A stretch of 64,000 bases of DNA from Antedon mediterranea (lineage: Eukaryota > Animalia > Echinodermata). The notes under the pieces are model-generated. The model had not been told where the DNA came from and made no database searches. It saw only the letters and a list, made by a program, of their open reading frames with translations. This document shows, in pieces, positions 16,608-45,560 of this stretch (the first letter of the stretch is position 1; each line of letters begins with the position of its first letter). The stretch lies in the NCBI RefSeq assembly GCF_964355755.1, contig NC_092677.1, positions 18,436,101 through 18,500,100 on the forward strand, written 5' to 3'. Position numbers and translations under genes: made by a program.

Positions 16608-17684
16608 TAGATGAAATGATGAACGAGTCTCTGAAAGTTGGTGTCAAAAACACACAGAGAGCCATATACTGTATAAAAAGAGGGGTGAATTTGTGTGTTT
16701 TTTGTATTGGTTCATGCTTTGATGTATCCTGACTTGCATGTAGGCCCTAACAGTTATTCTTTTGTTATTATAGACACAATATATATACGTTACCAAAATA
16801 ATACCATTAATAAAATTAATTACTAAAATAAAAACGGAATATAAGCGTTATTTCATTGACAACAAAATCTAAGAATAATGCATGAACTACAGGAAAACGC
16901 TATACAAAATAGACGCGCGCGCCCTCAGTGTGCGAATTCTTTGACACAAAAATGGCTTCTAATTTTCAATGTCGTAACTCTTTATATATATGGCTCTGGC
17001 TATGATTGCTCATGAACGACGTCATGACTTGTTTCCTGAGCTCACATTGGTTGCGCAATTGTTCGCGCTTCACAAAATGTACCCAGTGTACTTGAATTCG
17101 TTGCAAAAAAAAAAATAATAATAAGCATGCGTATACGCTGGGGCTATAGCTTTAGATTCGTGAAAATGAATTTCCCTTTACTACCCCAAAGGATGACTCT
17201 ATGTCAATTTTATAATGTTTCACATTGCGTACGTGAGACGTATGATTCCTCACTATTCTTTTTTTTTATAATTTTTTCTGGGAGCCTAGGCGTAAAGTTT
17301 TTTAACTTATATAGGCCTTAGGGTTCCTTCCATACATACTAAGTTTTTATTGGTTATATCGTACGTGTTTATATAATTAATATTTTAATTATTATTTTAT
17401 GTATTTTTAATATATGTGTGGAGAACATTTTATTGAATATTGAATAAACGAATCAATCAATTTAATATAAAAATTTGCAGGCATACACAATAGTAACAGA
17501 TTTATGTTATAATATTATTTATGTTATAATATTATTAGTATTATTATAGTAGTTAATAATTGATTTACATTTTGTTATACTGAAAAGATATGAAAATGTA
17601 ACGACAAATATTTAGTCTGGTTTATTGATAATTGATTACTCTTTGATATGAATGTGATATCAGCATGTATCTTGATTATTTAGA

Positions 17685-20002: not shown

Positions 20003-20216
20003 TTAATGTAATTATTCTAAATAACATCAATGAGGAAAATTGCAAAATACATCATAAACATAATGTTTTAAACATGTGTTATTTCTTATGTTTATGTTAA
20101 TTTAACCTTTTATATTACATAAAATTGTCTTTCAAAATGATACACTAACCATTCGTACTTATACTAATTAATGTTCACTATCATCATGGCTGCTAAACTG
20201 TAAGTAATTTACTATT

Positions 20217-22877: not shown

Positions 22878-25800
22878 ATGCAAACGTTGGTAGTTGTGTT
22901 TCTAGCCGTGTTTTTTTTTAACGGTGGTTGTGGTGAAGGTAAGTTAGTATCAAATAATATATTATTATCTTTAATTTGCTTTACAATGTATTACTATATA
23001 CATTATTGATTACATAAACCTACAAGTATAAAACAGCAACTCAAAGAACAAATATTCAACTGGGAGCCATTGGGTTTCTTTATATAAATTTACGTAAGGA
23101 AAAAATTCGATAAATCGCGCGTTATTTCTAGAATGTTTACTCGATGGTATATAAAGTTGGTTCGTGCTTTCGGTACTAATTTTAACCACCTGATGTAACA
23201 CTGTTTACTAATTAAATTGATAATTAGTTATTGACAAAACACGATTTACCCCAAATAGGGTTGTTTTCCGATCATGGTATACACTGTCTAATGGATGTCT
23301 ATCTTGAAAAATACCCGCACACAATAATACAAGGATGCTTCGCATTTTCCTGTCTTTCCTCCTACGATAAATGTTTTAATGGCTGAAAACCGATTGAACA
23401 GCTCGAGTACAGAATCATATTGTTGAGGATTTTCTTTAAAAAATACTATTTTGATAGAATTGATATACGTTTAAACCACATGTATTGATTTACGGTGAAT
23501 GAAACATTCCAAAGGTATTACTAGAGGGTTCGTTCGCTCGCCATCCTCAAGGAAGTGTAGACGTCGACGGTTCTCGGAATGATAATGACTCTGGTAAAAA
23601 TGTTTTAGAAGGAAATTTTTGCCTGGACATTTTCGGTCGGTTACCATTATTGAAATGCTTGATATTCGTAACTCACTAACCTGTTTCACAGTGTCTTATG
23701 ATTAATAGCGTTTTACGTATAGTGTTTATTGTTAGCACTAGGGATTCAGACCAAAAAAAATCAAAAAGATCTAACGTCTATTGATTTTTGGGCAAAAAAT
23801 TGCCTCAAACTGAATCCCAATAAATGCAAATCTATGCGACTTACTTAGAGAATATATCCCATTATATACAGCATTTCTGATATACGTTTAGATTGTAATG
23901 ATTTATTAAACATTTTAGGCTGTTCCATACAAAGTAACTTGTCATGGGACAATCAAGTTCAGGATGCAGTGTCAAATTGTAACCGTCTTATTGGTCTTAT
24001 ACGGTTAATCACATCTATGCCTCTAGTAGTGTAGTTCTCCATCTTTATAAGACACTTGTGCTGTCATGCTTTTATTATTGTTCTCTAGTGCGGTGGGTGT
24101 ACCGTAAAAAATATTTAAATATGTTAGAATCCGTTTAGAGGAAAGCTACCTGCATGATCTTAAAGAAAGGTTATTTACATCAACATTATATAGATAGAAG
24201 AAAGGAGCTAGGTCTAATGTCAGTAGAGAATAGACGTGATTTCTTAAACAAGACATTCATTGCCAATATAATAATTTCACCACGATCTGATTTTATGAGT
24301 GATTATATTGATTCTTTAACCGACACCTAGTTATACTTACCTTTCATTATGGTAGAGTCCGTACTGATGCTTAAATAATCAGGGATAGCAAAATGTTTTC
24401 AGAACTTGGTGCTCCGATTAGAAATAATCTTATTGAAGAGTCGTTTTTTAAGTTTAAACACAGTTTAAAGCAACATTTTATAGATTTTTTACTTTTCATA
24501 TTTTTATTTATTTTTTTAAATTGTACCTACTCTGAATTTTTAACTTTTTAACTTTTAGAAAATCAGAATTTTTAACTTTTATACAATCATAATTTGTAAC
24601 TTTTATACAATCAGAATGAAGATGACAGTTTTATTGCTTTTCCGCTACCCTGTTATACTTACATATTTTTTTTTATGTAGAAAGATTGAAAATAATTAAA
24701 AAACAAAAGAAAGAAGCGTGACAAAGAAGCGTGAGATTTAGATTAGGATTTCTCTTGCTCCAGTCGGCCATATGTAACAGAATGTGGCACACAATCGTGC
24801 GTGCTGGTGGTCTTATGACGACTATGACAAAAAATACATAACATAAGTTGCTGATTGTTGTTAACAACCTTTTTTTATCTTTACAGAGATCACATTTCCA
24901 GGAGGTTTCGGAGGAGGAAGAAGTAAGTAAAAGAAAGATATATGAAACTATAAATAAACATTCATTGTTCGTTTTAATGTTTCTCGATTTCATTGAGGCA
25001 TATTTAGTATTTAAAAAAATGAATTATGACATGCTTCATTGCTTTTATACACTAGATGGTACGCTCGCTTCGCTCGCGTACCATCTAGGTCGTGCCCACA
25101 GATGGTTCTCGAATACATAATAATTTCAGCGTTAAAAAACTGGCGATTTCAAATGTACGTAGGCCTACCGCAGGACAATAATACATGTCGTTTACAGGAA
25201 CGAATAAATAGACACTGTGATTTATGTACTCAACTAAAATTAGCACCCTGGGAATTACTTCCGAAAGAGAAACTTGTCACAAAATGAGACCAATTGTTTA
25301 AGTCAAATTTAAACAAACTTAATTTGTGTTTTGTATGTAACATTAGGGTTGAGGGATGGGGAAGAGGATGGGTGCAAAGAGGAACACTTTTTAAATATAT
25401 TCTTTATCCATTTAGTAACGAAATATTAATTGTTTTCATGTTTTACAAATAATATACCACTACACACAGTAAAACATTGCGATGTAATACTTTGTTGAAA
25501 CTATCACCGTCATAGTCGATTGAAATAGTACAGTACATGTAACGATACATCACTACGACGTGTATATGTTTATATAATGTAAAACAATTTGTGAAAACCA
25601 CCTCTATTCAGGGAAAATCATAAATTCGATTTAATCGTCAATAAATATTAAATTATCTAACTCAACTTAATTAGTAGGCCTAATGGTTTTCAATTGTTTC
25701 TTAGAGCCAATTCATACTTAAGTTGGTTCCTACCCTACCCACCAAAGTTGTTCTGCGTTTAGGGCAATGTACCGTAGGCTATCCTCTACTGGTTTTACAA

Positions 25801-28800
25801 CGCTACTCATGCCAGTGAGGGAAGGGTGATGATGTGGGTGGTTTAACTGCAATAATAAAGATGTGTACATAATATACGGCGAGTGAAAACGCTAGCTCAT
25901 TATCCGTTTAAACAAAATTTATATCCAAAATGGATCGAATTTCTGTTATGAGTATACAGTACTTGCCTTTACGACGCCTGAGGGAATAGACGGTTGTGGA
26001 ACAGAGATTGGAATGTTCCATTCATCGCAAATCAATACATTTGTATAAACGTATATTAAATCTATCAAAATAGTATTTTTTAAAGAAAATCGGCCTGTCT
26101 TCAACATTATGATGCTGTACTCGAGCTGTTCAACCGGTTTTCAGCCATTAAAAACAATTATCGTAGGAGGAGATAGGAAAATGCGAAGCATCCTCGTATT
26201 ATTGTTTGTGGGTATTTTTCAAGACGAACATCCATTAGACAGTGTATACCACGATCGAAAAACACCCATATTTGGGGCAAATCGTTGAACCTAAATTCGT
26301 TTTAATCGATCAATAACTAATTATCGAACTCAATTTAATTAGTAAACAGGGTTACATCAGGTGGTTAAAATCAGTACCGAAAGTACGAACCAACTTTATA
26401 TACCATCGAGTAAACATTCTAGAAATAACGGGCGATTTACCGAATTTTGCCCTTACGTAAATTTATATATAGATGTATAGTTAAAACATTGTAATGCTTG
26501 TTTCTTACAGGAATACAACCCACTGGAGGCCATGGTGGTGAGTTGAAAGTGTTTTATATACAATATGTTTTAGTTTTCACAAATACTATTATTTATTTAC
26601 TTGATAAACATAAAACTATGTTGAAATGGTTGTATTAAGCATATAATAATACTTATATTAATAATGATAAACCAATATAATACAAAATATTGTGCAAACT
26701 GAACAATATGTAAGTGTACCGACCAGAATTGTTCTACATAAAAATAGGACTTTCTATATAAAAACTGCCAAATTTCCTAAAACGACGAATTTTCTGTTTT
26801 TACGCTCTACCGTACGCATCTTTAAAAGAATAGATCATTTCGCAGTTTTAAATAATTTACTCACTTCCGTAATCAAGTTTTGTTTTATTTTTCTTCTTCT
26901 TTGTTTTTAGAAGTAGGTCATTGTTTAAACTGTAAATACATCACGTGTAAGCCAAAGCAGCCAAATCTTTCAACTCATGAAATAATTATCTTCTTTCAAA
27001 ACACTAAACTCTTCACTACCTGTTACAAAGTACATTTCTATTCAAATAATGATTCTATCTTCTTGAATCGTTGTCAAACTCTAAGCTAGGAAGGTAGTCC
27101 ATTAAAAAGGCAGCACTCCTATTTTGAAATCGAAATAGTACCATGGATATTTTGAATGCGAAAGAGTTAAAAAGCTGCACGGGCACTATGACTATGAATT
27201 AATGAGGTATAAATTAAAAAAATGTATACCTTCATGACTAATCTGAAATCATATGTATATCCCTAATATGTCTACATTGTTAAAATATTGTTCTCTGTAA
27301 AGTTGTCCTTGATTCTCAACCGCAAAACAATGAAGCCAAAATGTTTTATAAAATATCCAAGCACCACAATAATCTAAATCAAGATACATAGGCCTACAAT
27401 ACAAGATCAAAGGAATTATTAAAATTGGATAAACCCAAAACAGAATTTAAAACTAAAGTTTTTGATATCGTGGTAGATTATGGAATACTGTAGAAAACCC
27501 AATGCAAAGTGCCAAAAATACTTAAACAAAACTTTGCATGTAACTTTATTTTGTACCCCTAAATATAATGAAGGTTTCTGTTTATTTAGGCCTATGTTTT
27601 TCTCTCTCTTTTATTTTTAAATTAGTAATGTATTAAGTTGATCATGGCCTTGTTGTAGAACACTTTTCCGTGTTAAAATAAAATGATTTATTATTATTCT
27701 ATTATTATATGGAAAAGAGGTCATATATATTTAGAACGATTAATTAATCTTCCCCAACTATGACAAATGTGATGGCAAATGCCGTATAAACAATTATGCC
27801 CCATCGTTCACGTAAAGTTATCATGTATACTTTTTCAGCTCATGAAAGAAATCGTCGGGATAAATGTGAGTAGCTCCTGTACATATTGTAGTTAATAGGC
27901 CTACCTTTGATATATTACGTCTGTGCTGAAATAATATTTCAAATATATGTTTTTTGTTATTGATTATATAGGCCTATGTTCATTGAATTTGTATCGGTTA
28001 CTATTTGTATTTAACCTTCTGTTTTGAAATAAAATAAATATTTTCACTGAAAATGCAATAGGCCTACATACGGACACTTTAAAATAAAGTAAATGCTTTG
28101 GGTCGATAGCTATGGCAATGTTTTGGTCAATATAATAAAATTAACTAAAATACAAAGAGGACGTATCGTATCTTTATAATTTTACATACATATCGTAAAT
28201 GTACACCGATACACTACGTAATCAATTAGGTGGGGGCACATAGGCTACGTACAGCATACATTTTGCATACCTTGATTTACTGAATTTCAGATCGCTGTAA
28301 CTAAAACGTGTTACAAGGCTTAAACAAGATTAGGCCTATAACCTAACAAATTTGGGCTGTTCAAAATGTTAATTATTTGTTGTTCTACGCTTTGTAGCAC
28401 TAGTACCTCCTGCCGTAACTGGAATAAATGTTGAAAGTGGTGAGTCAACTATCCATAACTTACACTTATTTTAAACAGTAACAGGCTGATAGACAAGAAA
28501 CAATAATTATATTTTATTGCCTATGATAAAATAGGCAATAGCGTTATAGCCTACGTATTACATTTTAAAACAAGTTTAGCATAGTAACAGTACTATATTA
28601 CATTACATTATGTAAGTGCCATAAGTTATCATTTGTTTTTTTACTGTATTTCAGGTCATGACAGAATCCGCCGGGAAGAACGTGAGTAACTGTAAAAAGT
28701 TGATAAAACATTTATTTAAACAAGACTTATAATAAATCTAATATATTTTTATTATCTTAACATTTAACTTTCGATCACATCACTTTTTTTTTTTTATTAT

Positions 28801-31800
28801 TTATTTTATTTTATTTTATTAATAATTTTGTATAGTAATATCATAATCAACACATATTAACTTTCTTGCTAATTGTTTTGGTATAGATAATTAAATGCAT
28901 AAAACTCAATGAACTGAAATAGGCCTACGTATTGAGACCAACATCTACGTATCGTACTTTATACATTCAACATTATCGTAAAACTAAACGTTGATAACAT
29001 TGTTTAAACAAGATTATAACATAACAAATGTGTACAGTCTGTTCAAAATGTTAATTATTTGTTCTACGGTTTGTATTATTAGAACCTCCTGGCCCAAGTG
29101 GTAGAATAAACGTCGAAAGTGGTGAGTCAAATAACCATAACTTACACTTACACAATTCAAAAAGAAAGAGAAGAAACAATAATTATATTTCACTGCCTTT
29201 GATTTAGGAATAAAATATGCAAACGTATTACATTTTGAAACAAAGTTTAGCATCGTAAACAGTACTATTACATTATGTAAGTTCAATAATTTATTATTTA
29301 TTTAATGTATTTCAGGTCATGACAGAATCCGCCGGGAAGAACGTGAGTAACTGTAACACATAACACATAACTTAATCTATTTTTATTATCATAAAACTTA
29401 ACTTTCGATCACAACACTAAAATGTACCTTCATCGAAATGTTTATGTGCTAGCTGCTGTAGTTCTTCTTTGTGATTCAAAGTTTAATTGTATAATATTAT
29501 CATAACCAACACAGATAAACTTGATTTCGAATACATTTTCAAATAATTAATACATAGGCTAAAAATCGAAACGATTTAAAATAACAAGTAAAAATTGAAA
29601 AAATAAATAGTCAACCGAAATAAAGGAATACTGGATTAATATTTTCCTTCTACTATTTGTATTAAGTACAGCTCACTATGTCGGTCGGTTGGTCGGTCGG
29701 TCAAATAACTGAAACATGAGCACGCGACTGCAGCCATGTATATGTCCGTGTTATATTCATCATATCGTAAATATACACCCACACACTACTAAATCAATGA
29801 GGCGGTACAGTAACACACGTACAGCAACAATTGTTCATACCTTGATTTACTGAATGTCAGTACACCATCTCACCTAGTAAGCTGTATTGTAAAGGTCGTT
29901 GATCTAAATGTTAGTAAAGCGATCGCATATTCGGTGTAAGAACAGACAGAACAAAACATTTTGTGGTTGATAATATAAAATCAAATGCATTTACTCTTAA
30001 CACTTGTGTCCCACAGAGATGTGTTCTGTCCCCCTTTTTATTTACTTTATACTCATATGATTGTAAAGCAACTAGCGATTGTCACATTTTTAAATTCGCT
30101 GATGATGGGCTGATGATACAACCATAGTAGGTCTAATTACAAAAATGACGAAAATAACTATTTTAAACAGGCCGAGAGAATGATCTTGTGTTGAATGTAA
30201 ATAAAACAAAAAGAAATGCATATTTTTTTTCAGACGTCAGCAAAATTAAAAGTTCCCACTAATCCAAGGCAAAGAAGTTGAAATTGTTACAAGTTCTTAT
30301 GTATTCACTTTGCCGATGTTGACAAATGTTTCAAAAAAGGATCTCAACGTATTTTCTTTCTTAGAAGGATCAGGCAATTTGGTATTAGATCAGAGGTACA
30401 TTAATAATAATAATAACAGACTATCGATCAATAGTTGAAAGTATTCTTACTTTATCCTTTATGGCTGTTCCAATGAAGATAAAGAATAATAAAAGTTACA
30501 CAAGGTTGTTAGAAGTGCATAAAAAGTCATAGCCATACCCAAACGTTCTATTGGTACTTTGTACGCTGAACGTTTGCTCAAAAAGGCAAATTGATGATCA
30601 TAAATGATCCATACTATCCTGACATTTCCAAATTATGTCTCACAGTCACATATTTAGATCGATACTTGTAAAAACTAATTTCTGCAATCAGCAATCCGTT
30701 CAATTAATGATACATGTTTACGTTTAAGTGTTGTACTTCCCTGAAACCTTGAAATACCGGAATGGTGTCCGGCGGCGGGGTTTAGTTTTGACCAACCCCG
30801 AAACCTTGAAATACCGGAATGGTGTTCGGTGGGGTTTAGTTTTGACCAACCCCGAAACCTTGAAATACCGGAATGGTGTTCGGCGGGGTTTAGTTTTGAC
30901 CAACCCCGAAACCTTGAAATACCGGAATGGTGTCCGGCGGCGGGGTTTAGTTTTGACCAACCCCGAAACTTTGAAATACCGGAATGGTGTCCGACGACGG
31001 GGTTTAGTTTTGACCAACCCCGAAACCTTGGAATACCGGAATGGTGTCCGGCGGCGGGGTTTAGTTTTGACCAACCCCGAAACCTTGAAATACCGGAATG
31101 GTGTTCGGCGGCGGGGTTTAGTTTTGACCAACCCCGAAACCTTGAAATACCGGAATGGTGTCCGGCGGCGGGGTTTAGTTTTGACCAACCACGAAACCTT
31201 GAAATACCGTAATGGTGTTCGGCGGGGTTTAGTTTTGACCAACCCCGAAACCTTGAAATACCGGAATGGTGTTCGGTGGGGTTTAGTTTTGACCAACCCC
31301 GAAACCTTGAAATACCGGAATGGTGTTCGGCGGGGTTTAGTTTTGACCAACCCCGAAACCTTGAAATACCGGAATGGTGTCCGGCGGCGGGGTTTAGTTT
31401 TGACCAACCCCGAAACTTTGAAATACCGGAATGGTGTCCGACGACGGGGTTTAGTTTTGACCAACCCCGAAACCTTGGAATACCGGAATGGTGTCCGGCG
31501 GCGGGGTTTAGTTTTGACCAACCCCGAAACCTTGAAATACCGGAATGGTGTTCGGCGGCGGGGTTTAGTTTTGACCAACCCCGAAACCTTGAAATACCGG
31601 AATGGTGTCCGGCGGCGGGGTTTAGTTTTGACCAACCACGAAACCTTGAAATACCGTAATGGTGTTCGGCGGGGTTTAGTTTTGACCAACCCCGAAACCT
31701 TGAAATACCGGAATGGTGTCCGGTGGCGGGGTTTAGTTTTGACCAATCCCAAAACCTTGAGATACCGGAATGGTGTCCGGCGGCGGGGTTTAGTTTTGAC

Positions 31801-34800
31801 CAACCCTGAAACCTTGAAATACCGGAATGGTGTTCGGCGGGGTTTAGTTTTGACCAACCCCGAAACCTTGAAATACCGGAATGGTGTCCGGCGGCGGGGT
31901 TTAGTTTTGACCAACCAAGCAACCTTGAAATACCGGAATGGTGTCCGGCGGCGGGGTTTAGTTTTGACCAATCCCGAAACCTTGAAATACCGGAATGGTG
32001 TTCGGCGGGGTTTAGTTTTGACCAACCCCGAAACCTTGAAATACCGGAATGGTGTCCGGCGGCGGGGTTTAGTTTTGACCAACCCTGAAACCTTGAAATA
32101 CCGGAATGGTGTTCGGCGGGGTTTAGTTTTGACAACCCGGAAACCTTGAAATACCGGAATGGTGTCCGGCGGCGGGGTTTGGTTTTGACCAACCCCGAAA
32201 CCTTGAAATACCGGAATGGTGTCCGGCGGCGGAGTTTAGTTTTGACCAACCTTGAAATACCGGAAGGGTGTCCGGCGGCGGAGTTTAGTTTTGACCAACC
32301 CCGAAACCTTGAAATACCGGAATGGTGCCCGGCGGGGTTTAGTTTTGACCACGTAGTTGAAGTTCTATTTTTTTGCTGTAGCCGGGAAGCGATTTTTTTT
32401 TTTCGTACATAAGTTGGGGACCCCCTCATGAAACGTCACAAAATAAACATGAATAATTCATCAGTTAAATTTGTTGTTCCGTGTGCACCCAAGCGTATAG
32501 CAACAAGAAGCGATTACACAACTGCAATACGATACTTTCTACAACAGTAGGCCTAGGATTCTAAGTCAATTCACGCGATTGCCTTCGCGCACTCTTCTTC
32601 ACACAAAATGTGTCGAGTCGAGGCTAATCGACAGCTAGGCAAGACATTAAACTAAGTAGTAATTCATTGGACATAGCCCAAAGAAAGCTTAGACCCACAA
32701 GAATAAAGAATGTGTATAATTTGTGTACTGTATTTTTTTTAATTCTGCTATTTTATTATCAAACAATGCATGTACTCAAAGGAACTTTAAAAATGCGCGT
32801 ATATGAACACATGAGATGGGAAGATTAGACCCACTAGAATCGTACCGCACTTGTGTAATCATTTCTTGTTGCTATACGCTTGGGTGCAAACGGAACAAGA
32901 ACATTTAACTGATGAATTATTCATGTTTATTTTGTGACGTTTCATGAGGGGGTCCCCAACTTATGTACAAAAAAAAAAATCGCTACCGGGATGCGGGATA
33001 TCTTGACGCCATATCTACAATGTCCCTCTCATATTGGTCTAACTCCTCTCTACGTTGCGGATAAGCTCCGCACAATATATTTTTATAAATACCAAAGGCA
33101 TATATGAACTCCCCGATATTTAGCCTTTTGTTTAACCTTATATCTTTAGTGTGGGCATTTGCACCATCCTTGTTGTTGGATTCGATGGATAGACCAGAGT
33201 AATACGGAATCATTATTGATGCTAAAATAACATCCCTACCTGAAATGATCTGTTGCCGGATTGCCGGAGAGATTGTTTCCACTAAAGCCCCTTTCTCACA
33301 GATGTGCCTGCAATATACCGGTACAGTGCTGGCGTCGTGCCGGTATCGTTACCGGCATATAACCATTCTCATCGGACTATCGTGCCGGAAATATAACCGG
33401 TATATACCGGCTTTCTGTGAGAAAGCAGTCGGGCATATTCGGCCAATAAAAAGTCTCTGACAAAATAATTATTGAGGGCGTCCTTTAAACTGATTCCCAG
33501 TTTTGCTAAGACGTGTGCGTCTATTAATATGGACATTGACTCAATTTTCGAAACTTCCTACCTTGGCAATGACCCTGATAGTCATTGGGTTAAGAGATTT
33601 AAAGAGTTGATGCATGACACAAACATTGCATTTTGGAAAAGTGAAATGCTAAGAAAATCGTCACTTCAGACATACTCTCTTATTAAGTCTAATCCCTGCC
33701 TTGAAAAATATTTATTGGATTGTACAGACTTTCTAGGATCTAGCCTCAAATTCAAACTACGTTCTAACACCCTTCCTTTAGGTCACAGGAGTTGTAAGTG
33801 GCTTCCTGAATATGATGGTATCTGTAAAATGTGTAAGAATGGTTTAGAAGACATTCAACATTTTCTATTCACATGTAACCAACTCAATGGCATAAGGATT
33901 GAAGAATATACCAAATTAGAATATATGTTAATCGATATCAATCATTTAGATGTATGGGAAAATTGTATCTCTGGTGACCTGAACACCAAATTAAATCTTG
34001 TATTAGGTGGAACTGATAACTACTATCATTATATGTATGACGTCGATTCCATATCAAATATCTTTGATTGTTACTGTAAGCACTATGTTAAAAGAGCTTG
34101 GGCACACAGATGTATTGTTCTAGGCGAGTAATGTTCATATCAATCAAACTAAATGATTGATATCTATCTCACTAAATGATTGATATCTATCTCATTATAG
34201 TGTTAGGTCTACATTGTTGTTGCCCAATTCATTTTATATTGTACAGTTCCTACCTAGTATTCTATATGTTTATTTCTTGTAATTTTGTATTTTTAGGTGT
34301 CAGTTCAATGGTATTGTAGTTACTGTAGTTGAATTGTTTTGACATGTTGACCTATGTCGACTTTTTATTGTAATTGTTATTTTCTATATCATGTTTTTTT
34401 TTTTTTGTATATTTCTCTTGGATGCACCTTCCATTTGGTCGAGTGCCACTGTTGTAAAAGTGTAATCTCCAAATAAATTATTAATGTTATTATTTTTGTC
34501 TAGCGATGATATGGCGGCGAATGTCAAGTTACAGATTATTATCTTCCTTTATAGCATATTTATGCAATACATGCTATGTACAGTATATTGTGCATATATT
34601 ATACAGGCATAGCAATTAATTTGTCGTCATCGGCAATCTGTAAAACACCTTAGAAGGCTGTAGGCCTACAATTTACAAGGCGATGAAAGGTCAGGCACCA
34701 ACAAACAAAGAGCTAAATGGCCTAGCCTAGCGGCCTATAGATTATGCTACAAATTTCTTCTTGTCCCCTTATTTTAAGCAGCTCTCTTATCTCATTATCC

Positions 34801-37706
34801 CTCCAGTTCGACATTATTATTGTTAATTGAATTGAATAGGCGCCAAAGTGATACACTTGACCGCGCAATGTGTCAAAGCCTCGACGGGGAACCCCGGAAT
34901 TTAACGGCGATACGTTCTCACAGAATGCCCGTCTGGCATTGCGGGGAATATCCCTAGAATATTACTAGGTCTAAAGCAGGTCATGTCGATGCCGGCATGG
35001 TGCCGGCATGATGCCAAGACGACCCGTTCTCACAGAAAACCATACCGGCATGGTAATGGTATATTCCCGCAATATTCCTGGCACACAACTCTGTGAGAAA
35101 GGGGCTTAATAGACAAGTTCTATTTCCTCTGAAATATGGTGTAAGAAGCATTTTTGGGTAGAAGCTGGGATCCACTTGATTTAGGATATTTCGACCTCGC
35201 TGATTACGAATATGGCGGATCCCAAGCGAAATTCGGCCATCTAAGCCCTTAATTTGCATAATTAAAAATGGCGGCCATTTTTTATAATTACCCTATATCT
35301 CGAGAACCACTAGTCACAGATAATTAATTTTGGTCTCAAAATGTTTTAAATATATGTTTTTATATTCACTTTAATGACACATTTTCTCAAAAAATGGATG
35401 CAAGTCTTATTTCTGACATTTTGACCTTTGACCTTTATTTATCGTATCTCAGTAACCAATAATCGGAGAGACACGAAATAGGGCTCAAATTGTTCAGAAA
35501 CTATACATTCATATTTATTATAATGAAATGTTTTTACAAAAAATGGCCAATTCTACAACTATTGACCTTTGAACTATTAGTCAAATATAATAATATAATG
35601 ATAATATAACTTTGAAAATTGTGGTCTTATGAATTTTTTTTTCTTTTTAAATTGTTTAAAATATGTGTGTTTCTATCCAGTCTAATGGCACATTTTGTAC
35701 AAGAATGGCCGATAGTATGGTTATTGACCTTTAAACTACAGCATAGGCCTACTGTATACTAAATATAATATAATTGCATAACTATGAAATTATTTATACA
35801 CAATAATAATTAGTAAAATTATAAAATTCACTGCCATCAAATATGATGTGTTATGATTTATATAGATTAAAAAAAAAATTTGAACACGCAAGTTACATTT
35901 GTTGAAATTTGAAATTTGAAATCAAGACTAAAAAACATGAATTTTCCTTAATATGGTCAAATACAAAATTTGGCAAAATTCTTCCATAAAAACCAGGAAG
36001 GCTTTTTTTCAGTAGTTAGGTAGTAAACCTAATGTAATAACATTGAAAAAAGATGGTGGATATACAGTGGATAATTTTTTTGCTATAGCATGAAAATAAT
36101 TATTTTCAACAAGCTCGTGTAACACAAATTAAATGCCAAAAATTATGAAACATAGGGGAAACTATAGATCGATAATTATTGGAATGTATGATCAATAGAA
36201 ATTTTTTGCCCGCACCTGGCCTTTAAGGTGAAAATTCGAGCCAACAACAACAAGTTTACGTACTGTAATTAATAGGTAAATTAATTGTATTACATTTCGT
36301 CTGGAAAATCGTCGCTAGCGAAAGTAAACAATAAGATTTCAAACCACGAGTATGCATTATGCATGATGCTAATTAGGATTTAGAAGGACTATAGTGACCT
36401 CACACAAGGTTACCGTACTAATAAATTAAACGTAAAAGACTAGGCGACATATTAATAAAAACAGGTGTCCCTATCAAATAGATCAGATTCACTCGACACG
36501 GCCCTCCAAGCATATAACGCTCCTGCGAACAACAATATATACCTCAAGGATGTTAAAAAAAACAAATATGTAAGTTACTTACCGGTAATTCTACATTCAT
36601 TAACCATTATCAAATAATATTCCATATAAAATCATTTATGCTTTAATCATCTCTATTCTATTCTTCAGATACCAATCCATGTGACTCAGTTGATTGTAAA
36701 AATGGTGGAAATTGTTACATTAATTCTTATTACCAAGTTTATTGCGCGTGTCAAGATTGTTATTCTGGAACATACTGTGAAAAATGTAAGTTTGTTGAAT
36801 TTTGAATTCAAAATTATTTACTGCAATTACTTAAGTTATTTGAATTATAATTAACAATTTATACCCATTTTTGTTACAGATAATGATCCTTGTAATGATG
36901 ATAGTAATCCATGTCAAAACTCTGGTCTCTGTATTTCTGAGGGTTGTAATTTTTGGTGTAAATGTCCAGCATGCTATACTGGTGACAGTTGTGAATATTG
37001 TAAGAATCCTACCCACATACATACAACGTTCTTATATTAATTATAATTTTACAATTAAAATACATTTTTCTTATAAAATAATAATTAATCATTTCAGCAT
37101 TATTTTCAAATCATTTTGAAAGGTCTTACTTTCCATCCTCCTATCTGTTGTAATTGTAATTTTAATTGTGTTTGTATGAATTTATTTCACTAAATTTTAA
37201 TAAATTATTTTCTGCTTAGACATTAACCCTTGTGAAGATGTGAATTGTAATGGCGGGCAATGTGTAGTTATTTCAAACATCAGTCAGTGCACATATGAAT
37301 GTACCAACTGTCCATATGGCTATACTGGAAACAATTGTGAAACTCGTAAGTACAGTATTCAATTACTTGTTAAAGCATGCCATTTGGTTATAAATTCCCT
37401 ACAGGTGTTGGTGCCGTCGTGGAACTACTGGCAATAGATGTCAATGTAAGTATGAACACGGATTACAAAATGTATGTGTTTATGCGTTTGTTACCTAATT
37501 AACAATGCCTCTCGGAGTACAGTGATTTATTTGTTACTAACTAATTAACATGCCTCTCGGTCTACAGTGATTTATTTGTTACTAACAAGACTCCTATGTC
37601 ATAATTAACAATGCCTCTCGGAGTACAGTGATTTATTTGATAAGACTAACATTTTACAATTTTACTTGCAGATACTTCTGGTTACTACGCCCCATACGGA
37701 GGATAA
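22878..37706 (+). CDS. Secreted precursor: signal peptide, micro-exon peptide repeats with convertase sites, 3 EGF-like domains. Exons 22878-22938, 24887-24922, 26511-26537, 27839-27865, 28398-28439, 28655-28681, 29083-29121, 29316-29342, 36669-36785, 36880-36999, 37220-37345, 37672-37706
   Basis: Every exon has a pyrimidine-AG acceptor and all but the last a GTAAG/GTGAG donor; all introns are phase 1 and all internal exon lengths are multiples of 3. Joined frame: MQTLVVVFLAVFFFNGGCGEEITFPGGFGGGRRIQPTGGHGAHERNRRDKSLVPPAVTGINVESGHDRIRREEQPPGPSGRINVESGHDRIRREEHTNPCDSVDCKNGGNC...CETHTSGYYAPYGG*. The splice from 29342 to 36669 is inferred. Confidence 0.72.
23080..23512 (+). mobile_element. Helitron 5' fragment of the same family
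   Basis: TATATAAATTTACGTAAGG..AAATCGCGCGTTATTTCTAGAATGTTTACTCGATGG is the reverse complement of the end at 26400-26470. Confidence 0.75.
23760..24480 (+). mobile_element. Degenerate CR1-group LINE 3' fragment
   Basis: Remnants KLNPNKCKSM, SNLSWDNQV, VVLHLYKTLV, LESV*RKATCMI and RRKELGLMSVENRR. Confidence 0.65.
25052..26473 (-). mobile_element. Complete non-autonomous Helitron in intron 2 of the micro-exon gene
   Basis: 5'-TC...hairpin-CTAG-3' on the minus strand; the paralogous intron at 41467-41490 shows the empty site TTTTATACA|TGTATAGTTAAAAC with no TSD. Confidence 0.95.
27800..29860 (+). repeat. Tandem duplication of a two-micro-exon module with its introns, about 2.5 units of 650-800 bp
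   Basis: Exons 28655-28681 and 29316-29342 are identical and 27839-27865 is related; 28398-28439 resembles 29083-29121; flanking intron sequences are also similar. Confidence 0.85.
29930..30737 (+). mobile_element. Degenerate Rex1/Babar-like LINE body (RT 3' half); probable 3' tail displaced to 40070-40140
   Basis: Remnants CVPQRCVLSP, FKFADD, LNVNKTK and SQRIFFLRRIRQFG. A tail with AATAAA and CTTGA repeats follows the composite block. Confidence 0.7.
30738..32350. repeat. GC-rich minisatellite, 57/54-bp unit, about 29 copies, with a 447-bp higher-order duplication
   Basis: Unit CCCGAAACCTTGAAATACCGGAATGGTGT(C/T)CGG(CGG)CGGGGTTTAGTTTTGACCAAC. Identical ORF-track peptides at 30829 and 31276 mark the 447-bp repeat. 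Confidence 0.97.
32389..32983. mobile_element. MULE-type MITE, copy 1 (about 595 bp, about 135-bp TIRs)
   Basis: GCGATTTTTTTTTTTCGTACATAAGTTGGGGACCCCCTCATG...CATGAGGGGGTCCCCAACTTATGTAC(A)nTCGC; nearly identical to 39467-40060 and in the same orientation. Confidence 0.92.
32984..33282 (-). pseudogene. DIRS/Ngaro-type retrotransposon Gag-like fragment
   Basis: ETISPAIRQQIISGRDVILAS...DIRLNKRLNIGEFIYAFGIYKNILCGAYPQRREELDQYERDIVDMASRY resembles ORF1 of tyrosine-recombinase retrotransposons; bounded by other elements on both sides. Confidence 0.65.
33286..35106. mobile_element. PIF/Harbinger-like non-autonomous element with a nested LINE fragment
   Basis: TIR AGCCCCTTTCTCACAG...CTGTGAGAAAGGGGCT; TSD TAA at 33283-33285 and 35107-35109; subterminal CCGG-rich motifs. 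Confidence 0.85.
33472..34492 (+). mobile_element. 5'-truncated non-LTR retrotransposon 3' end (RTEX/CR1-group-like; ORF remnant 33472-34131)
   Basis: SSLQTYSLIK..LEKYL..KFKLRSNTLPL..CKMC..EDIQHFLFTC zinc-knuckle C-terminus; 3' UTR ending in AATAAA and an ATT-rich tail. Confidence 0.75.
36669..37345 (+). CDS. Three phase 1-1 EGF-like domain exons (36669-36785, 36880-36999, 37220-37345)
   Basis: NPCDSVDCKNGGNCYINSYYQVYCACQDCYSGTYCEK; DPCNDDSNPCQNSGLCISEGCNFWCKCPACYTGDSCEY; NPCEDVNCNGGQCVVISNISQCTYECTNCPYGYTGNNCET. Canonical AG/GTAAG boundaries, no stops. Confidence 0.92.
37497..37640. repeat. Short intronic tandem repeat, 3 copies
   Basis: AATTAACA(A)TGCCTCTCGG(AG/TC)TACAGTGATTTATTTG three times. 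Confidence 0.85.
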
Positions 37707-39466
37707 TATCTTAAAAGAAAATAATAATGAAATAAATATTATATAAATAAGCAGGAATTGTGTGAAAACAATGTTTAACACGATTCTATTTCTATCACAT
37801 CTCCAATGATCATTCAGTAAGATATTTCTAATATTTGTGAATTTATTTATATTATATAATATATTAGGTAATTTTAATACTATTTTATAAGAATTTATAT
37901 TAATAAATGAATAAATATGTAAAAGATAATTTATCTTCATTAAGATAATAATAATAATAATAGGGCCTAATAATAATACATTTTTAGAGCGCATACAGGG
38001 TTAAGCCTCTTTGCGATTAACAATAGAAAATAACAAGTTTCCAATAAAATAAAACTGGAACTAAATATTAAATAATATAATATAAGCATTAATATAACTT
38101 TTAGTTTGATAGAATTTGTAGCTAGGGACGTACTGTATTTTGAATTTAATGTTACAGTATAATTAATTTGTTACAATGAAATTCATGGGTTTTTGTAAAA
38201 CCAGAAAAGAATTATTATAATTTATTTATATAAACGGTGTTCAATTTGAACTAAAATATAAAATAATATGATATTTGATTTGTTTTGTATTTGTTTACAA
38301 ATAAAAATCTAAAAGTATGTCTAGTAGGACATTTGCTTTCTACATTTTAATAAACGTACTTTTATAATTAAAATTGTGATTACTTCGTTATTTTTGTTAC
38401 TCCATAATCAAATAACTTTAAATTAGATAATAGCAAATCTAACAATTATTTAAAGTTGTGAACGTCTAATTAATTATAGCATTTCTAATGTGTAATGTAT
38501 TTCATCGATCAGATTTTAAAGATGTATTGTCTCCCAAAAACATGACGGAAAAATGAAGATTAATAAAATCAGACATTGAATAGGCCATTGTATATTTTTA
38601 ATTAAGCTGTAGAAAAATGAAAAAAATAATGGTTTCACTTATAAGAAGCCAAATTAACTAATTGTCTGAGACAATTTGAGTATTTTTTGCTTTTCAGGTA
38701 AATAATTTTTTTTTCGATCCAATTTTTGGTTAAAGTTTAATATTTAAAGTTACATTAAAATGGCATATTCAACAAAAACATGTTATATATAGTCAACTGA
38801 TTCATATCTAATGCAAAGTAAACAATGGAATTCACGAAATCACCACTACAATACCACAAAGCTAAAGAAGTCCTTTTACTTCATTAAATCGTGTGTACAA
38901 AACAATTCATTCGAGTTACTACGATACCAACCAATTGTTGCTGTTCTTACCTCGTGTCTAATATCATTGGTCTTTATGATTCATATTAATCTTTATTGGT
39001 CTAATCATAACAAAAAATGTAATACGAAAATGTTTATAAACTGCAAATAAAATGTAAAAATATACATAAATATGGTTAATAACATCTCATTAAATTGGTG
39101 GTATATTATTGTAAAATGCTTCACTAAAAGTAACATAAACATAATCACTTTACGATTGTCATTTTTATGACATTCATGACAGACTACAATTTATATTGTC
39201 ACGTCATTTTTGCCATGACTATAGTCTTTATTGTCATCACCATTGAATCACCATGACTACGATCATTATCATTATTTGTTATCATAATCATGGTTACAGT
39301 CATTGTCATTTATGTTATGTTATCATCACTGTCAAAACGGTCCAACATGTCTAGCTCATCTGTCATCTTTTGTATGATTAGTCCTAGTAATCGTTATTAA
39401 TGCATATTTTAATATTAAAGTTGATCGTCTTATAGGCCTAATTCGCTTCTATACCCGGACCCGGAT

Positions 39467-40060
39467 GCGATTTTTTTTTTCGTACATGAGTTGGGGACCC
39501 CCTCATGAAACGTCACAAAATAAACATGAATAATTAATCAGTTAAATTTGTTGTTCCGTGTGCACCCAAGCGTATAGCAACAAGAAGCGATTACACAGCT
39601 GCGATACGATACTTTCTACAACAGTAGGCCTAGGATTCTAAGTCAATTCACGCGATTGCCTTCGCGCACTCTTCTTCACACAAAATGTGTCGAGTCGAGG
39701 CTAATCGACAGCTAGGCAAGACATTAAACTAAGTAGTAATTCATTGGACATAGCCCAAAGAAAGCTTAGACCCACAAGAATAAAGAATGTGTATAATTTG
39801 TGTACTGTATTTTTTTTAATTCTGCTATTTTATTATCAAACAATGCATGTACTCAAAGGAACTTTAAAAATGCGCGTATATGAACACATGAGATGGGAAG
39901 ATTAGACCCACTAGAATCGTACCGCACTTGTGTAATCACTTCTTGTTGCTATACGCTTGGGTGCACACGGAACAAGAACATTTAACTGATGAATTATTCA
40001 TGTTTATTTTGTGACGTTTCATGAGGGGGTCCCCAACTTATGTACGAAAAAAAAAATCGC
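39467..40060. mobile_element. MULE-type MITE, copy 2; right boundary of the putative composite transposon
   Basis: Near-identical to 32389-32983; right flank AGCCGGGAA (40061-40069) equals the left flank of copy 1 (32380-32388). Confidence 0.92.
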
Positions 40061-41302
40061 AGCCGGGAAACCGTTCAAATTCATTTCAATGTAAATTGGT
40101 CTATGTTTTACAAATAACAATAAATTTACTTGACTTGACTAGAGAGGCCAGAAATACAAGTCTTCTAAAAAATGTTTAGGAGATTTTTTTGTTAATAGCA
40201 GGCAACCATGTTGAATGTATACTTTGTGGGGTGACAAAAACGATAGGGGTGGATGCCATCTTCAGTTTTGGGATTTAGGTCAGTTATGTGGTTATGTGGA
40301 TTTTTTTTCACGCTGCTGCTTTAGCCAGCTATGTCCCAGGAGGATGACTCATTAAGAAACCGAAAGTAAAGCAGAAGTTTTGCTAAAGGTTGACAGTTTT
40401 GCTAAAATGTATACTCGACTGTAATTTATAGGTACCACCAAAAAACGTCTGGGAAAGAGTCTAACGGTTGAATGACAAATCCCAAAGCATTTGTGGTATT
40501 TATGAGTTCAATGATATTATAAAATTCGCTTTCAGATGATACTTCAGACTTGAATGAAGTATCTAGTCATGATGGAGTGACCCGCAGACTTGACCTTAGC
40601 AATAAAATAAACTAAAGTGACTGATATGAAACACAGACTCTGTAACAAAAAAATAATATTTGTTCACATATAAAAAAAGAAAAAAAAACCGTTTAATTAT
40701 AACTCAAAAACCACTGTCTGACAATTAAGTATTTTTGACATTAAATTACATTTTTTCAGGTAAAATAACTGTTATGTGACAATAAAATGACACATTCAAA
40801 CACAAATTTGAAATAAAAAATATTTTTCAGAGGGACAATATATCTTTAAAACTGTTACGTCAATAAGCGAGCAGCGTTTTTTGTAAGAAATATTTCTTGT
40901 TTATTTTATTTTATTCACAGAAAATCACATCTACAGATTTTCTGAAGATCAGCTATCATCAAATATTATATTAATTATGAGATAAACATTTTATTTTATA
41001 CATAAAAACATAGGAAATGAAATACAAAAGTGTCATTTTCTCAAAATGTTGTTTTCACATAATTTCGATAGAACATCTTTTAAGTGGCGTGAAAGACACA
41101 CTGGGCGTTTCATAGAAATCACCGGCGGCTCAACTTGTCGGCGGTCCGCATTATTTTTTTTCTATGCAATTAAGGCAGAAATCATTGAATAATTCATTAT
41201 AGAATAATTATGACATAATATGGGAAAAGTGTATGCCATTAAAATACTGATACTAAGTGTTTCAATTACAGTGAAAACGTCTTCCATTTTTTATCTTTAC
41301 AG

Positions 41303-41540
41303 AGATCACATTTCCAGGAGGAAGAGGAGGAGGAAGAGGAGGAGGAAGTAAGTGAAAGAAAGATTAAATATCAAACTATAAAAATCATTCATTGTTCATA
41401 TTTCTTGATTGCATTGAGGCATATTAGTATTTCAAAGAAGGATTGAATAATGACATGCTTCATTGCTTTTATACATGTATAGTTAAAACATTGTGATGCT
41501 TGTTTCTCTATAGGAATACAACCCGCTGAAGGCCGTGGTG
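41303..41540 (+). CDS. Paralogous micro-exon pair (41303-41347, xITFPGGRGGGRGGG; 41514-41540, RIQPAEGRG)
   Basis: Homologous to exons 24887-24922 and 26511-26537, with intron homology extending to about 41795; splice sites intact, phase 1, lengths 45 and 27 nt. Confidence 0.7.
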
Positions 41541-43422
41541 GTGAGTTGAAAGTGTTTTATATACAATATTTTTTAGTTTTCCCAAAATACTATTATTTAT
41601 TTACTTGATAAACATAAAACTATGTTGAAATGGTTGTATTAGGCATATAATATAGGCTTATATTATAAATGATAAACCAATTTTGTTGATTTATTTATTC
41701 TAATTCTTCAAATTATTAACCAAAATAGATATGATACAAAATATTGTGCAAACTGGACAATTTACAAGTGTCCCGACCAGAATTGTTCTACATAAAATAA
41801 AATGTTTAAACTAAAATTCACAACTAAATACCATCGATATACAAATTACATTTAACAACAAGTTAAAAGCTTAGCATCAAAGTTATGTTTTAGTGTTAAA
41901 GACAAAGGAGAATATAATTAATATCGAATACTTTTACATACAACATCATTCATCACAGTCGTTAACTTATTAAAGCTTCCACTCCCCACTTGGACAAAAC
42001 GCGTGGTCGCCACAAGTAAATTGACCAATCACGGCGCGGTGGATCAACTTATCTGTGTCGAGGAGCGAGGAAACAAGTCCCAATATTGCAATGAATAAAT
42101 ATGACGTAGGTTGGTCGTCGGTCAGAGGTTATATCTGTATTTGTGTGTCTACTATATCATAAAATTGATAAAAAAAGGATACAAATTGTCAACAATAAGC
42201 TACAAATAAATGTTCACAATTTTCTTAAACTGTACAGTGTGATTAATTATTATTATTAACTATTATATCATTATTGTATATACATTTTAATGTAATTAAT
42301 TATTAATGTTTCAATTGTATTTTTAGATGGTTACTAAGGAATTACATTGATCAGCCATAGATACATCTCTTTATCCTTATGTAAACAATTGGCGAATATA
42401 AACACTTGTGTGTTTTTGTGTAGCCTACATGTACAGGAACATATTCATCATTCGCGGTACTATACGTACCATTTATTTGTATCAACAACATATATATATA
42501 TAAAGTATTTCTTTCACAAGAATATTTCTATAAATACATATTGTTAAGAGATAAATATAAAGCAAGGAAAACGTGAAAAATAATTACGAAAAATTACAAT
42601 AGAAACATTTTTAAGGTAAATTCCAGTTTTAGATGTAGAGCAAAGTAGAAAATAAAAGAAAACTATGAAAAAAGATGGATATTGCGAGAACATACTACTG
42701 TCTGGCTATTTTAACCACTTCTCTATCAACACTTGTGTCTCTCTGTATTTGCTCTGTGCAGTTATGCGCATCCCTAGCTGTAACCTCATTAATGTTGGTC
42801 AGAGTACAATAGTAGTTCTTTAAATTCCTATTCAACATTTAAATTCTAAAAAAAACCAATGGTTTAGGCCTATATGTACTTTGTTTGCGACATATATAGC
42901 GCTTTTACAGTGGGTATAACTTTTTGAGCGTTCGTTCATTCTTGTGGATTCAACCAATGTATTTTAATATTTAGGTTTTGCCAAAGCCACTAGAAATAAT
43001 AACACATATTTATCATGCTTGCTGTTGTTTTTATTTATAAGGTTATTTTATTTTTGGAAATCTAAATGTTTATTTAGCCACAGTGTGCCTGTCTTTATTT
43101 TCATATACTCGCAATTCCATCATTTTCTTATACTGACCATGATTGCATAAAAGAACCTTGATATGGTTAGAAAGCTACACTCACACTTGTTCCGTTTCAC
43201 GGAATGGAAGACGTTCAATTATTTTTATGATTTTCCATTGCTTACCAAAACAGACTCGTGTTCCGTTCTCTATGGTGTGATAGCAATGTTGCCTTTTTTT
43301 ATAAGTCTTCGTTATAAAAGGTCCTGTGGCATAAATTATGACCTATTCAATGCACGGTTGTTCATTTCAACGGCTAGTACTCCGAAAATCAAAAGGGAAA
43401 CACGACGGGTAACCACACGACG

Positions 43423-45560
43423 CACAGTGTGCCAAAAGTCCAAAATGGTAAATGTGGCAATCCAAACTGTTTAATATTGTATTAGGAAGAAGATATCTTA
43501 AATTATATAAATCCACTAATAATTTTATATTTTGTCAATTTTAATAGTGTCCTGTAACCATGGAAACTGGAAGAAACCATGATATTTCACTTAAAATGAG
43601 CAAAAACAAATGTTTTGATAAATTCGCTGTTATTTTTTCTAGAAAAAAAGCAATGGATTTGATACTGCATGGAATTGTTGTCTGTTATTAATCATATTAG
43701 GAAGTAAAAATAAAATTTCCATTATTGCTTTATTTTGGGGTTAAAAGGCACCAAATATAGCCCCAAATACCAATAAATCGTATTTTTAAAGTAAAACCAC
43801 TAAAATAGTTTGGATTTACGTCGATTCGCGCGCTAATTTTGACATTAATATTTCGAGCAAAGCTAAAGCTTTACTTACTTTAATACCAAATTTGGCTGCG
43901 ACAATTTGCGACATTGCATATAGGAAGCGATTTAAATGTCCATATGCGTGTCGTTTAAAAATAAATGTATAATGCATTCATTGACACATTGATGTACCAC
44001 AATCGCACGAACTTGACGAAGAAAAAACCTTTCCACGACGCGTCTGTATTGGAAAAGGGAATGCTACCAGTGTGAGAATAAGCATTCGTAAATGTAGGTA
44101 CATGTAACATGGCCTCCATATCAAAATAAAACTTCTGAAGCTGTCCATTCGGCTGTTTAAATTACCAATATTGACCTAGCCTGCGATGTATGTTTACGTG
44201 GATTGCATTTACATTACAATGTAAGGAATGACGAGAACATACCAAACAACCTTTTGCAGTAAACTACTAAACTATCAAAGCATTTCTTTATTGTTTACGA
44301 AGAAGATGGTACAAGTATGGCCGTCACAATCATTTCATCAGCTATTAGTAGTCAAAGAACCAGAAATTAACATGTAAAATATGTGCTGAAGTTTGCAATG
44401 CTAAAACCATCAAGACCAGCTAAAATAAGAAAGTTAATATACCAAAAAAAAACCCAGAACCGATCAAGTTTACAAGTGAAGAAGCTTTGCCACTTTTAGT
44501 TGAAACTGATATGACAAAACAGTCATACCAAACAGGTTTGCTGAAAAAGGCAACCATGCAGATATTTACCCATCATATAACAACGTGAGGGAAGCTAAGC
44601 ATAGATGCTACCCAAACAATATAACGGTTAAAGAAGATTTGGCAAGAGTACCCCTTCAAAGCTTGCTGGACCATACAGCATTTCGAATTGTTCAGGAAAA
44701 AAAAGAAGAAATTATAGAAGTAGTAGAACATTTTGAAAGATACTTCCTATCGATTTTGCCGACCTTAGACCTGCAATTCAAGAAAGAAACGACTCAACTA
44801 TAACAGACAGACAATGAGTATGTTCAAGATGAGATAAAAAAGCAGCAACCAACGAAAATATTATTTGATATTAACTATGAACTGGCTGCAGAATAAACAG
44901 AAAAGACAACATCTAGGCCTAAATAAACTACAATTTACAATTCACCATGGTTGACCAAAATGTCGTAGTAAGTAATCAATGCGATGTTATATATGTGGAG
45001 CTACTCCAAAACAGTTGATTGATTTGGAAAAACTCCCATCGTCAAGTGAAGAAGCCTACAGCTATGGGCTCTCGCCACTACACAGTGTAGGTGCTTCGAA
45101 ATGATAATTCATATTGGGTACAGAATGCCAGTAAAACAGTGGCGTATTTCGTCTGATAGTGAAAAAGCTATCGTTGTCGATATAAATAAAAAATTACACG
45201 ATCGGTTTAAAGAAGAGATAGGGCTGACAGTAGATTAACCTAACCAAGGAAAACGATGGCAACACAGCTTGCAGAGAGCTTTCCGGGAAAAAGGAGACTT
45301 TCGCTGAAATTTGCGGGTTGGATGTAAATCTAGTACACCGTATCCATATGATTTAGTAGCAATATCATGCAAATCGTGTTTAGTTATATACAACTCTATC
45401 CATGTTATAAAATGCCAGTGAGTGTACATGTAACATTGTTTTTCTAGTTCATTTATTCACAATCATTTCGAGTTGTACTGCATTACCGATAGGTAGGATA
45501 AGCGAAGAGGCTCAAGAAGCAAGGAACGAAGACATAAACCCGATAAGCATGGCATGTGAA
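43423..45560 (+). mobile_element. Degenerate Transib DNA transposon (transposase relic at about 44400-45540)
   Basis: CACAGTG terminus at 43423; remnants FTSEEALPLLVETDMTKQSYQ, IYPSYNNVREAKHRCYP, VPLQSLLDHTAFRI, FTMVD, ICGATPK, YGLSPLH and SEEAQEARN. Confidence 0.85.

Follow-up and report, generated by a model that had tools for sequence, protein, structure and literature searches.

The genome assembly of the feather star Antedon mediterranea, a crinoid echinoderm (GCF_964355755.1), includes, on contig NC_092677.1, a predicted peptide gene built mainly of micro-exons, whose eighth intron contains a 7.7-kb block of foreign appearance. The stretch analyzed here, referred to as the window, comprises the 64,000 nucleotides from position 18,436,101 to position 18,500,100 of the forward strand; coordinates are counted from its first letter. 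The window is AT-rich animal DNA with spliceosomal introns. The block consists of two MITEs (miniature inverted-repeat transposable elements) and, between them, the 3′ EGF exons of another gene, and it is best explained as a composite transposon that would have landed recently in intron 8. A probability of about 0.55 is assigned to this explanation as a whole, which covers the composite landing, an in-phase chimera of the two genes, and the displacement of an older 3′ end situated 12 kb downstream. An earlier sequence-only reading had proposed an imported EGF 3′ end, an older micro-exon 3′ end beyond it, and two isoforms. Nothing on this locus was found in the literature searched.

The composite block and the donor gene

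The block is bounded on both sides by the same 9 bp, at 32380-32388 and 40061-40069 on the forward strand, which form its putative target-site duplication. Immediately inside lie two MITEs in the same orientation, copy 1 at 32389-32983 and copy 2 at 39467-40060, with terminal inverted repeats (TIRs) of about 150 bp. The pair is 98.8% identical (7 substitutions in 594 sites), and the element on either side is complete, its two TIRs included, so the 6,483-nt cargo between them (32984-39466, forward strand) does not lie inside a single element. The 9-mers at the two outer ends match at nine of nine positions, and those at the inner ends differ; allowing for a common CCSGG-like core, the rough chance of such an outer match is 0.003, a figure derived from four sites only. 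CCSGG-core motifs occur 25 times in the 64 kb, and both inner ends of the cargo sit on this core, their register being that of the target duplication, which argues for ends made by a transposase. A reading of the cargo ends as an older inverted repeat was rejected. The long TIRs (about 150 bp) and the 9-bp duplication together are those of Mutator/Foldback elements, and PMC3169594 gives a 9-bp target duplication as typical of one Mutator/Foldback family. Removal of the block would join the intron of exon 8 to the intron that precedes d2, the first of two downstream micro-exons described below.

Three EGF exons lie within the cargo on the forward strand (36669-36785, 36880-36999, and 37220-37345). 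EGF is a class 1-1 module, and these exons of 117, 120, and 126 nt follow the class 1-1 phase rule within intron 8: all are of phase 1-1 and, as the sequence-only reading had observed, in frame with exon 8 (29316-29342). Their Pfam EGF scores are below the cut-off for two exons, and one has no match. The exons encode 7, 8, and 7 cysteines rather than 6, and extra or inter-domain disulfides are possible. Further downstream, the imported terminal exon and its likely 3′ untranslated region (UTR) occupy 37672-38110 on the forward strand; the stop ends at 37706, and poly(A) hexamers are found at 37731, 37902, 37910, 38043, and 38067. By conceptual translation, the chimeric product through 37672-37706 is 227 residues long.

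Searching 5.8 billion proteins with the third EGF exon returned one protein cluster, from Antedon mediterranea and at 100% identity. The cluster contains two records, XP_071941017.1 and XP_071953093.1, on contigs of 40.9 and 31.7 Mb; because these donor-type records are on separate contigs, at least one of them lies away from the window. The EGF exons of the window correspond at 120 of 120 residues to the middle of XP_071941017.1, a longer EGF array that has further EGFs before and after the matched part. A remnant at 37400-37445 (forward strand) is what survives of the donor's last EGF exon, namely its back half: 37400-37444 encodes the last 15 residues of the last EGF of XP_071941017.1 (15/15), and the deletion junction falls within 37379-37399. 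The segment 37405-37445 had been tried as a normal exon and was rejected, as it is off phase and belongs to the back half of the deleted EGF exon. The terminal exon agrees with the tail of XP_071941017.1 at 10 of 10 residues. Because of this alignment, the window copy is taken to lack the upstream EGFs and to have lost two and a half EGFs by internal deletion. The second record, XP_071953093.1, has the same deleted join, with mismatches at 2 of 131 residues, and retains two upstream EGFs; from the window, the upstream EGF triplet of the donor is missing. No full-length donor orthologue was found (one protein among two candidates; 121 of 470 passed, and the 120 listed were all at 38% identity or less). 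Close relatives of the EGF exons were likewise not found outside Antedon mediterranea.

The comparison data are assembled contigs only, from runs designated X1, X5, X6, and X9. Of these, X1 possibly stems from the source sample, X5 is RNA only by guess, X9 contributed little, and X6 represents a relative, organism B. The 57-bp satellite of intron 8, the junctions of exon 8, and the left end of the block lie outside the stretches compared with these contigs. In organism B, the contig over the third EGF exon no longer follows the window beyond 37385, where the deletion lies. Among the matches listed, contigs at the cargo ends in X1, X5, and X6 continue 1-7 kb beyond the cargo: a 7,914-nt contig of X1, the possible source sample, matches 38775-39475 only; a 6,279-nt contig of organism B matches 38756-39109 only; and a 1,262-nt X5 contig matches 32994-33269 only, at a presumably intronic end of the cargo, and continues leftwards. 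The near-identical donor elsewhere, the internal deletion, the MITE pair, and the outer 9-bp duplication bear out the proposal that the EGF 3′ end was imported, and on these alignments import of the EGF block is considered very probable.

The recipient gene and the downstream exon pair

The recipient gene begins with a signal-peptide exon (22874-22938, forward strand) that has an ATG at 22878 and ends in phase 1; the signal peptide was judged by eye, with no predictor. According to tblastn, this exon is single copy within the 64-kb window. The exon itself starts with an acceptor, and 2.7 kb upstream, at 20136-20200, lies a possible non-coding first exon with a GTAAGT donor. Seven micro-exons of 27-42 nt follow on the forward strand, all with AG/GT ends, all with lengths divisible by three, and all in phase 1: the Gly-rich exon 2 (24887-24922; 36 nt, phase 1-1), exon 3 (26511-26537; 27 nt), exon 4 (27839-27865; 27 nt), exons 5 and 6 (28398-28439 and 28655-28681, the unit spanning 28398-28681), and exons 7 and 8 (29083-29121 and 29316-29342, the unit spanning 29083-29342). 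Exon 4 is homologous to exons 6 and 8, and each of the three encodes one R-X-R-R, the site motif of furin-type convertases. The unit of exons 5-6 is duplicated as exons 7-8, with 43 substitutions in 394 sites; from such alignments, the recipient gene appears to have expanded by copying its own exon pieces. Exon 8 has a phase-1 donor that is usable for either 3′ end. A further match of 79%, between 29761-29860 and 28189-28290, constitutes the trace of a third copy of the intron that precedes exon 5, the exon itself being gone. For the survey of crinoid neuropeptides in PMC9793003, searches by passage and term in its main text and seven supplementary files brought up no motif of the precursor.

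Two more micro-exons lie beyond the block on the forward strand: d2 (41303-41347; 45 nt), a paralog of exon 2, and d3 (41514-41540; 27 nt), a paralog of exon 3. The sequence-only reading had described them as intact phase-1 micro-exons paralogous to exons 2-3 (24887-24922 and 26511-26537), and this description holds: both have AG/GT ends and lengths divisible by three, and the match to the upstream copy includes the introns. The duplicate extends over about 500 bp (41284-41797 against 24868-26743), is without the 1.43-kb repeat present in upstream intron 2, and differs from the upstream copy by substitutions at 32 of 436 aligned sites (7.3%). The absence of a signal exon for the pair, also claimed earlier, agrees with the single tblastn hit and with a remnant search whose scores were matched by 62-91 of 200 random windows. 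A 36-nt remnant of the signal-exon donor at 40943-40978 was rejected, since 91 of 200 random windows scored equally, as was homology past the 500-bp duplicate, where equal scores came from 38 of 200 random windows in one test and from 7 of 60 in another. Because homology ends at about 500 bp and neither a signal exon nor a remnant precedes the pair, the pair is read as an exon-pair duplicate and not as a detectable whole-gene paralog. The truncated tandem paralog once offered as an alternative is unlikely in its whole-gene form, homology being confined to this short segment.

Gene structure can be compared with that of organism B, which has a d3 orthologue with its AG/GT ends kept. Contigs of this relative cover d3 and its flank to 42422, with 32 substitutions in 675 sites (4.7%) over the two longest pieces. 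At three-way sites, private changes number 13 in the upstream copy, 5 in d, and 3 in organism B; the organism B contig has 17 substitutions, of which 14 entered this count, 6 of these 14 lying where the upstream copy is unaligned, and the 3 unlisted substitutions could cut the 13 private upstream sites to 10. Because these sites make the organism B copy orthologous to d, the duplication is dated, on the alignment, to before the split from organism B. Between the cargo and X1 contigs, substitutions number 10 in 2172 sites (0.46%), where X1 may be the source sample; organism B is ten times as distant. Divergence decreases from the micro-exon duplicate (7.3%) through organism B (4.7%) to the EGF cargo (0.5%), an order that supports the earlier suggestion of an older downstream pair. 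Because the duplicate stands at 7.3% and the cargo at 0.5%, the downstream pair would almost certainly predate the insertion.

The 3′ end proposed for the downstream pair is a terminal exon at 42327-42337 (forward strand), with the first AATAAA at about 42651. The sequence AG|ATGGTTACTAA is indeed present at 42327; the exon stays speculative, as 42327 is simply the best local acceptor, ranking first of 97 AGs in 41560-44000. The acceptor matrix behind this ranking was built on 14 acceptors, one of them off by a base, and its scores are rough. A peptide-only product via 42327 would have 122 residues. The RGD motif predicted across the last junction would be formed in the window, and an in-frame loss of 3 nt from d3 in organism B removes the glycine of this motif. 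The chances that 42327 is the real last exon are evenly balanced; that the downstream pair once served as the 3′ part of the recipient gene is rather more probable. Organism B skips about 42423-42535, 85 bp past the candidate stop at 42337.

Splicing of the two ends and alternative explanations

In the preferred explanation, the peptide gene would have grown by exon-pair duplications, with exons 5-6 giving rise to 7-8 and, while organism B had yet to separate, exons 2-3 giving rise to d2-d3. Two MITEs would have inserted on either side of the EGF exons, in a donor or intermediate copy with the deletion already in place, and a transposase would have taken the two outer ends and moved the whole block. 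Exon 8 would now splice across 7.3 kb to 36669, skip the off-phase remnant, and end at the imported poly(A) signals, so that the resulting protein would comprise a signal peptide, a propeptide, and three EGFs. A furin-type convertase acting at R-X-R-R of exons 4, 6, and 8 would free the EGF module, and formerly the same convertase sites would have freed the last Gly/Arg-rich peptide. The block comes with a terminal exon and poly(A) signals of its own, so that it is no less likely to displace the old end than to alternate with it. A peptide-only form would arise from skipping of the block or, more likely, mainly from alleles without it, because a skip of 12 kb past a terminal exon with poly(A) signals would be needed. 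Splicing of the chimera is given slightly better than an even chance; production of both forms from one allele, as the two-isoform proposal implied, is doubtful.

The contigs bear on splicing at one point. In a 627-nt X5 contig, 188 unrelated letters give way to the window sequence precisely at the 37672 acceptor, which is the pattern of a spliced transcript, and the match extends to 38110, past the poly(A) hexamers at 38043 and 38067; the exon ahead of it is not among the matches listed. On this match, some copy of the terminal exon is probably spliced. Depth in X5 slightly favors the join of the third EGF exon to the terminal exon over the undeleted join, and depth in X1 is higher over the cargo than over d2-d3; contig depth is neither copy number nor expression, and neither observation was used as support. 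Seven X5 contigs match within 41262-42425, none of them on d3 or on the body of the 42327 exon, in a comparison in which uncovered parts are uninformative and d2 was skipped as a repeat.

Several findings weigh against the preferred explanation. The junctions 29342-36669, 29342-41303, and 41540-42327 were not seen, the junctions of exon 8 being among the stretches outside the contig comparison. The X5 contig that ends at 38110 follows the letters of X1 at 37808 and 38002, not those of the window, shows three more differences, and may derive from another copy. A donor copy with a MITE on each side was not seen. Both donor models are without a signal peptide or a real N-terminus (one starts off-frame inside an EGF exon, the other apparently in an intron), and the true 5′ exons of the donor could be peptide exons. 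With respect to the older end, 5 of 156 AGs in 37720-41304 score at least 8.9, the level of 42327, and one of the five is d2; the RGD motif is lost in organism B; and between d3 and exon 3 there are 3 changes in 27 bases, each of which alters an amino acid, a divergence not below that of the introns.

The strongest rival treats the insertion as a passenger. In that case the block would be spliced out, or its allele would be silent, and the gene would still end via d2-d3, at 42327 or another exon, with no chimera formed. No chimeric junction was seen among the contigs, and a search with the third EGF exon of proteins of 73-2000 residues gave one candidate and no peptide-plus-EGF protein. On the rough matrix of 14 sites, the acceptor of d2 reaches 11.6 and that of the first EGF exon 5.7. 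Both indels in d2 and d3 preserve the frame (an X1 contig is 12 nt shorter across d2, and organism B lacks the 3 nt in d3); this is weak evidence, however, because they are located in GGA/GTG triplet runs, where in-frame slippage is expected. The EGF exons, on the other hand, keep their splice sites, phase, and open frame and come first in the path of transcription with poly(A) hexamers of their own, and a mere passenger is considered improbable.

More improbable still is a reading of d2-d3 as a dead and partial duplicate that was at no time a 3′ end, the old end having used some other or lost exon and the EGF end being the only usable one now. The duplicate is only about 500 bp long and has no signal exon, its exon divergence is not below that of its introns, and the candidate exon at 42327 has no homolog in the upstream copy. 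Its intact splice sites are weak evidence of function, for a dead copy of the same age would keep all 8 invariant bases with a probability of about 74% in the absence of selection. Against this stand the d3 orthologue in organism B, which retains its frame and splice sites, and the precedent for exon-pair duplication in exons 5-8. Some 3′ end was required, moreover, before an insertion only 0.5% old, and the outer 9-bp repeat places d2-d3 next in line.

Marginally less probable again is that peptide plus EGF is an old family architecture, in which the unannotated 5′ exons of the donor would be peptide micro-exons and the window would record a like-for-like swap or an ectopic recombination between MITEs. 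Micro-exons are easily missed by annotation, and both donor models are without a true N-terminus; the convertase site just before the EGFs resembles a natural pro-protein, and this locus could have XP_071953093.1 as one of its alleles. For Drosophila, 10.64898/2026.08.09.743762 reports ectopic recombination at transposons as the main route by which fragments spread. Recombination into a resident MITE would nevertheless still be an import, with an identical end structure. Searches of the 5.8-billion set and a representative set found no protein joining peptide exons to these EGFs, the next relatives having at most 52% identity, and the window is without the donor's upstream EGF triplet. As a last variant, a MITE-bearing circle could have recombined into a resident MITE, leaving the same ends as the composite landing.

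Known systems and neighboring features

The mechanism proposed here is already known from foldback-flanked composites, Pack-TIRs, and class 1-1 shuffling; the locus, as read from its sequence, would be a clean young animal case of it, with the chimera predicted. The closest likeness is to Ising, a composite transposable element of Drosophila melanogaster in which DNA moved between two foldback transposons (PMC6431247): in both, two TIR elements of the same family flank host DNA that apparently moved as a unit. The cargo here measures 6.5 kb, whereas that of Ising measures hundreds of kb, and unlike Ising it is a promoterless 3′ gene fragment placed in phase in an intron of another gene. Movement of the present block would follow from the structure of its ends.

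Pack-TIRs and Ssk-FB4 resemble the block in that TIR-linked duplication of gene pieces occurs in animals, often producing chimeras with host genes (PMC8277862). The cargo of a Pack-TIR is contained in a single element, with a median length of 224 bp, and multicopy cases lie far from the parent (PMC8277862). In the window, by contrast, four coding exons with their introns, and a terminal exon, stand between two whole elements, and the cargo would add domains rather than UTR. Because two whole elements flank the cargo, the block is not a strict Pack-TIR or Pack-MULE (Mutator-like element). In maize, alternative Ac transposition yields chimeric genes (PMC1592236), and there too the ends of two separate DNA elements cooperate in joining exons of different genes; the maize case involves linked paralogs and reversed hAT ends, whereas the elements here are in direct orientation with a 9-bp duplication and at least one copy of donor type on another contig.

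Class 1-1 shuffling (PMC8001218) likewise places phase 1-1 domain exons behind a phase-1 signal exon by intronic recombination. The classical examples are very old, and nothing is left of their vehicle, whereas vehicle, target duplication, and donor remain legible here. The micro-exon genes of schistosomes are specific to the Schistosomatidae and have 10-20 exons, mostly of 15 bp (10.1101/2023.06.21.545858). The recipient gene shares with them a signal peptide (here judged by eye) and a run of short exons, mostly of lengths divisible by three; this is an analogy of form only, as the taxon restriction does not extend to the present locus, where the EGF exons match crinoid proteins.

Animals owe much of their protein repertoire to the shuffling of phase 1-1 extracellular modules, and most examples are ancient. 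At this locus the donor, the vehicle, the target duplication, the recipient, and the displaced old end are all readable at less than 1% divergence. If the junction is transcribed, the locus allows the beginnings of a new multidomain secreted protein to be tested directly (isoform or allele, neutral or selected), along with a composite MITE pair as the shuffling vehicle in an animal. If it is not, the locus is a tidy natural macrotransposition, mainly of interest for transposon biology. The fullest version of the claim remains tentative: a young deuterostome class 1-1 shuffle in which a MITE pair moved an EGF cassette within one species, with an expressed convertase-cleavable protein that segregates or splices against a peptide-only end.

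Other repeats surround these features. A nested inverted-repeat element with TAA-like flanks occupies 33285-35107 in the cargo and carries the 3′ fragment of a long interspersed nuclear element (LINE) at 33485-34480, with a zf-RVT score below the Pfam cut-off; copies of the nested element in runs X1 and X9 skip 33485-34480. The 1.43-kb repeat of intron 2 (25046-26474), found in the upstream copy only of the exon 2-3 duplicate, has a further copy at 15139-16608. The 57-bp satellite array of intron 8 (30739-32351) contains 29 copies, is GC-rich with a perfect 447-bp higher-order repeat, and ends 28 bp ahead of the target duplication; CCGG motifs in its unit resemble the MITE target core. Near the left end of the window, Pfam identifies a PHD-finger exon at 29-202, whose frame stops after 91 codons. 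The 5′ part of the window also holds a 28-residue piece, which we take to be FLYWCH-like and which has no Pfam match. Downstream of both is a lone TIR of the same MITE family at 4148-4288, and features at 1612-1700 and 2327-2410 are grouped with the PHD exon and this TIR. No MULE domain was identified near the lone TIR with Pfam; the PHD exon, the 28-residue piece, and the TIR may together be what is left of an autonomous partner of Mutator type.

The next clear gene downstream, on the forward strand, is a cytochrome b5 gene (51177-56220; first exon Pfam Cyt-b5), which provides a synteny anchor. It is followed on the reverse strand by an exon of an amiloride-sensitive sodium channel (58406-58573; Pfam ASC) and by an open frame of 156 codons (63021-63488) that has no Pfam match and perhaps belongs to the same gene. 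At about 6300-9520, also on the reverse strand, a long LINE-like reverse-transcriptase stretch was recognized by eye.

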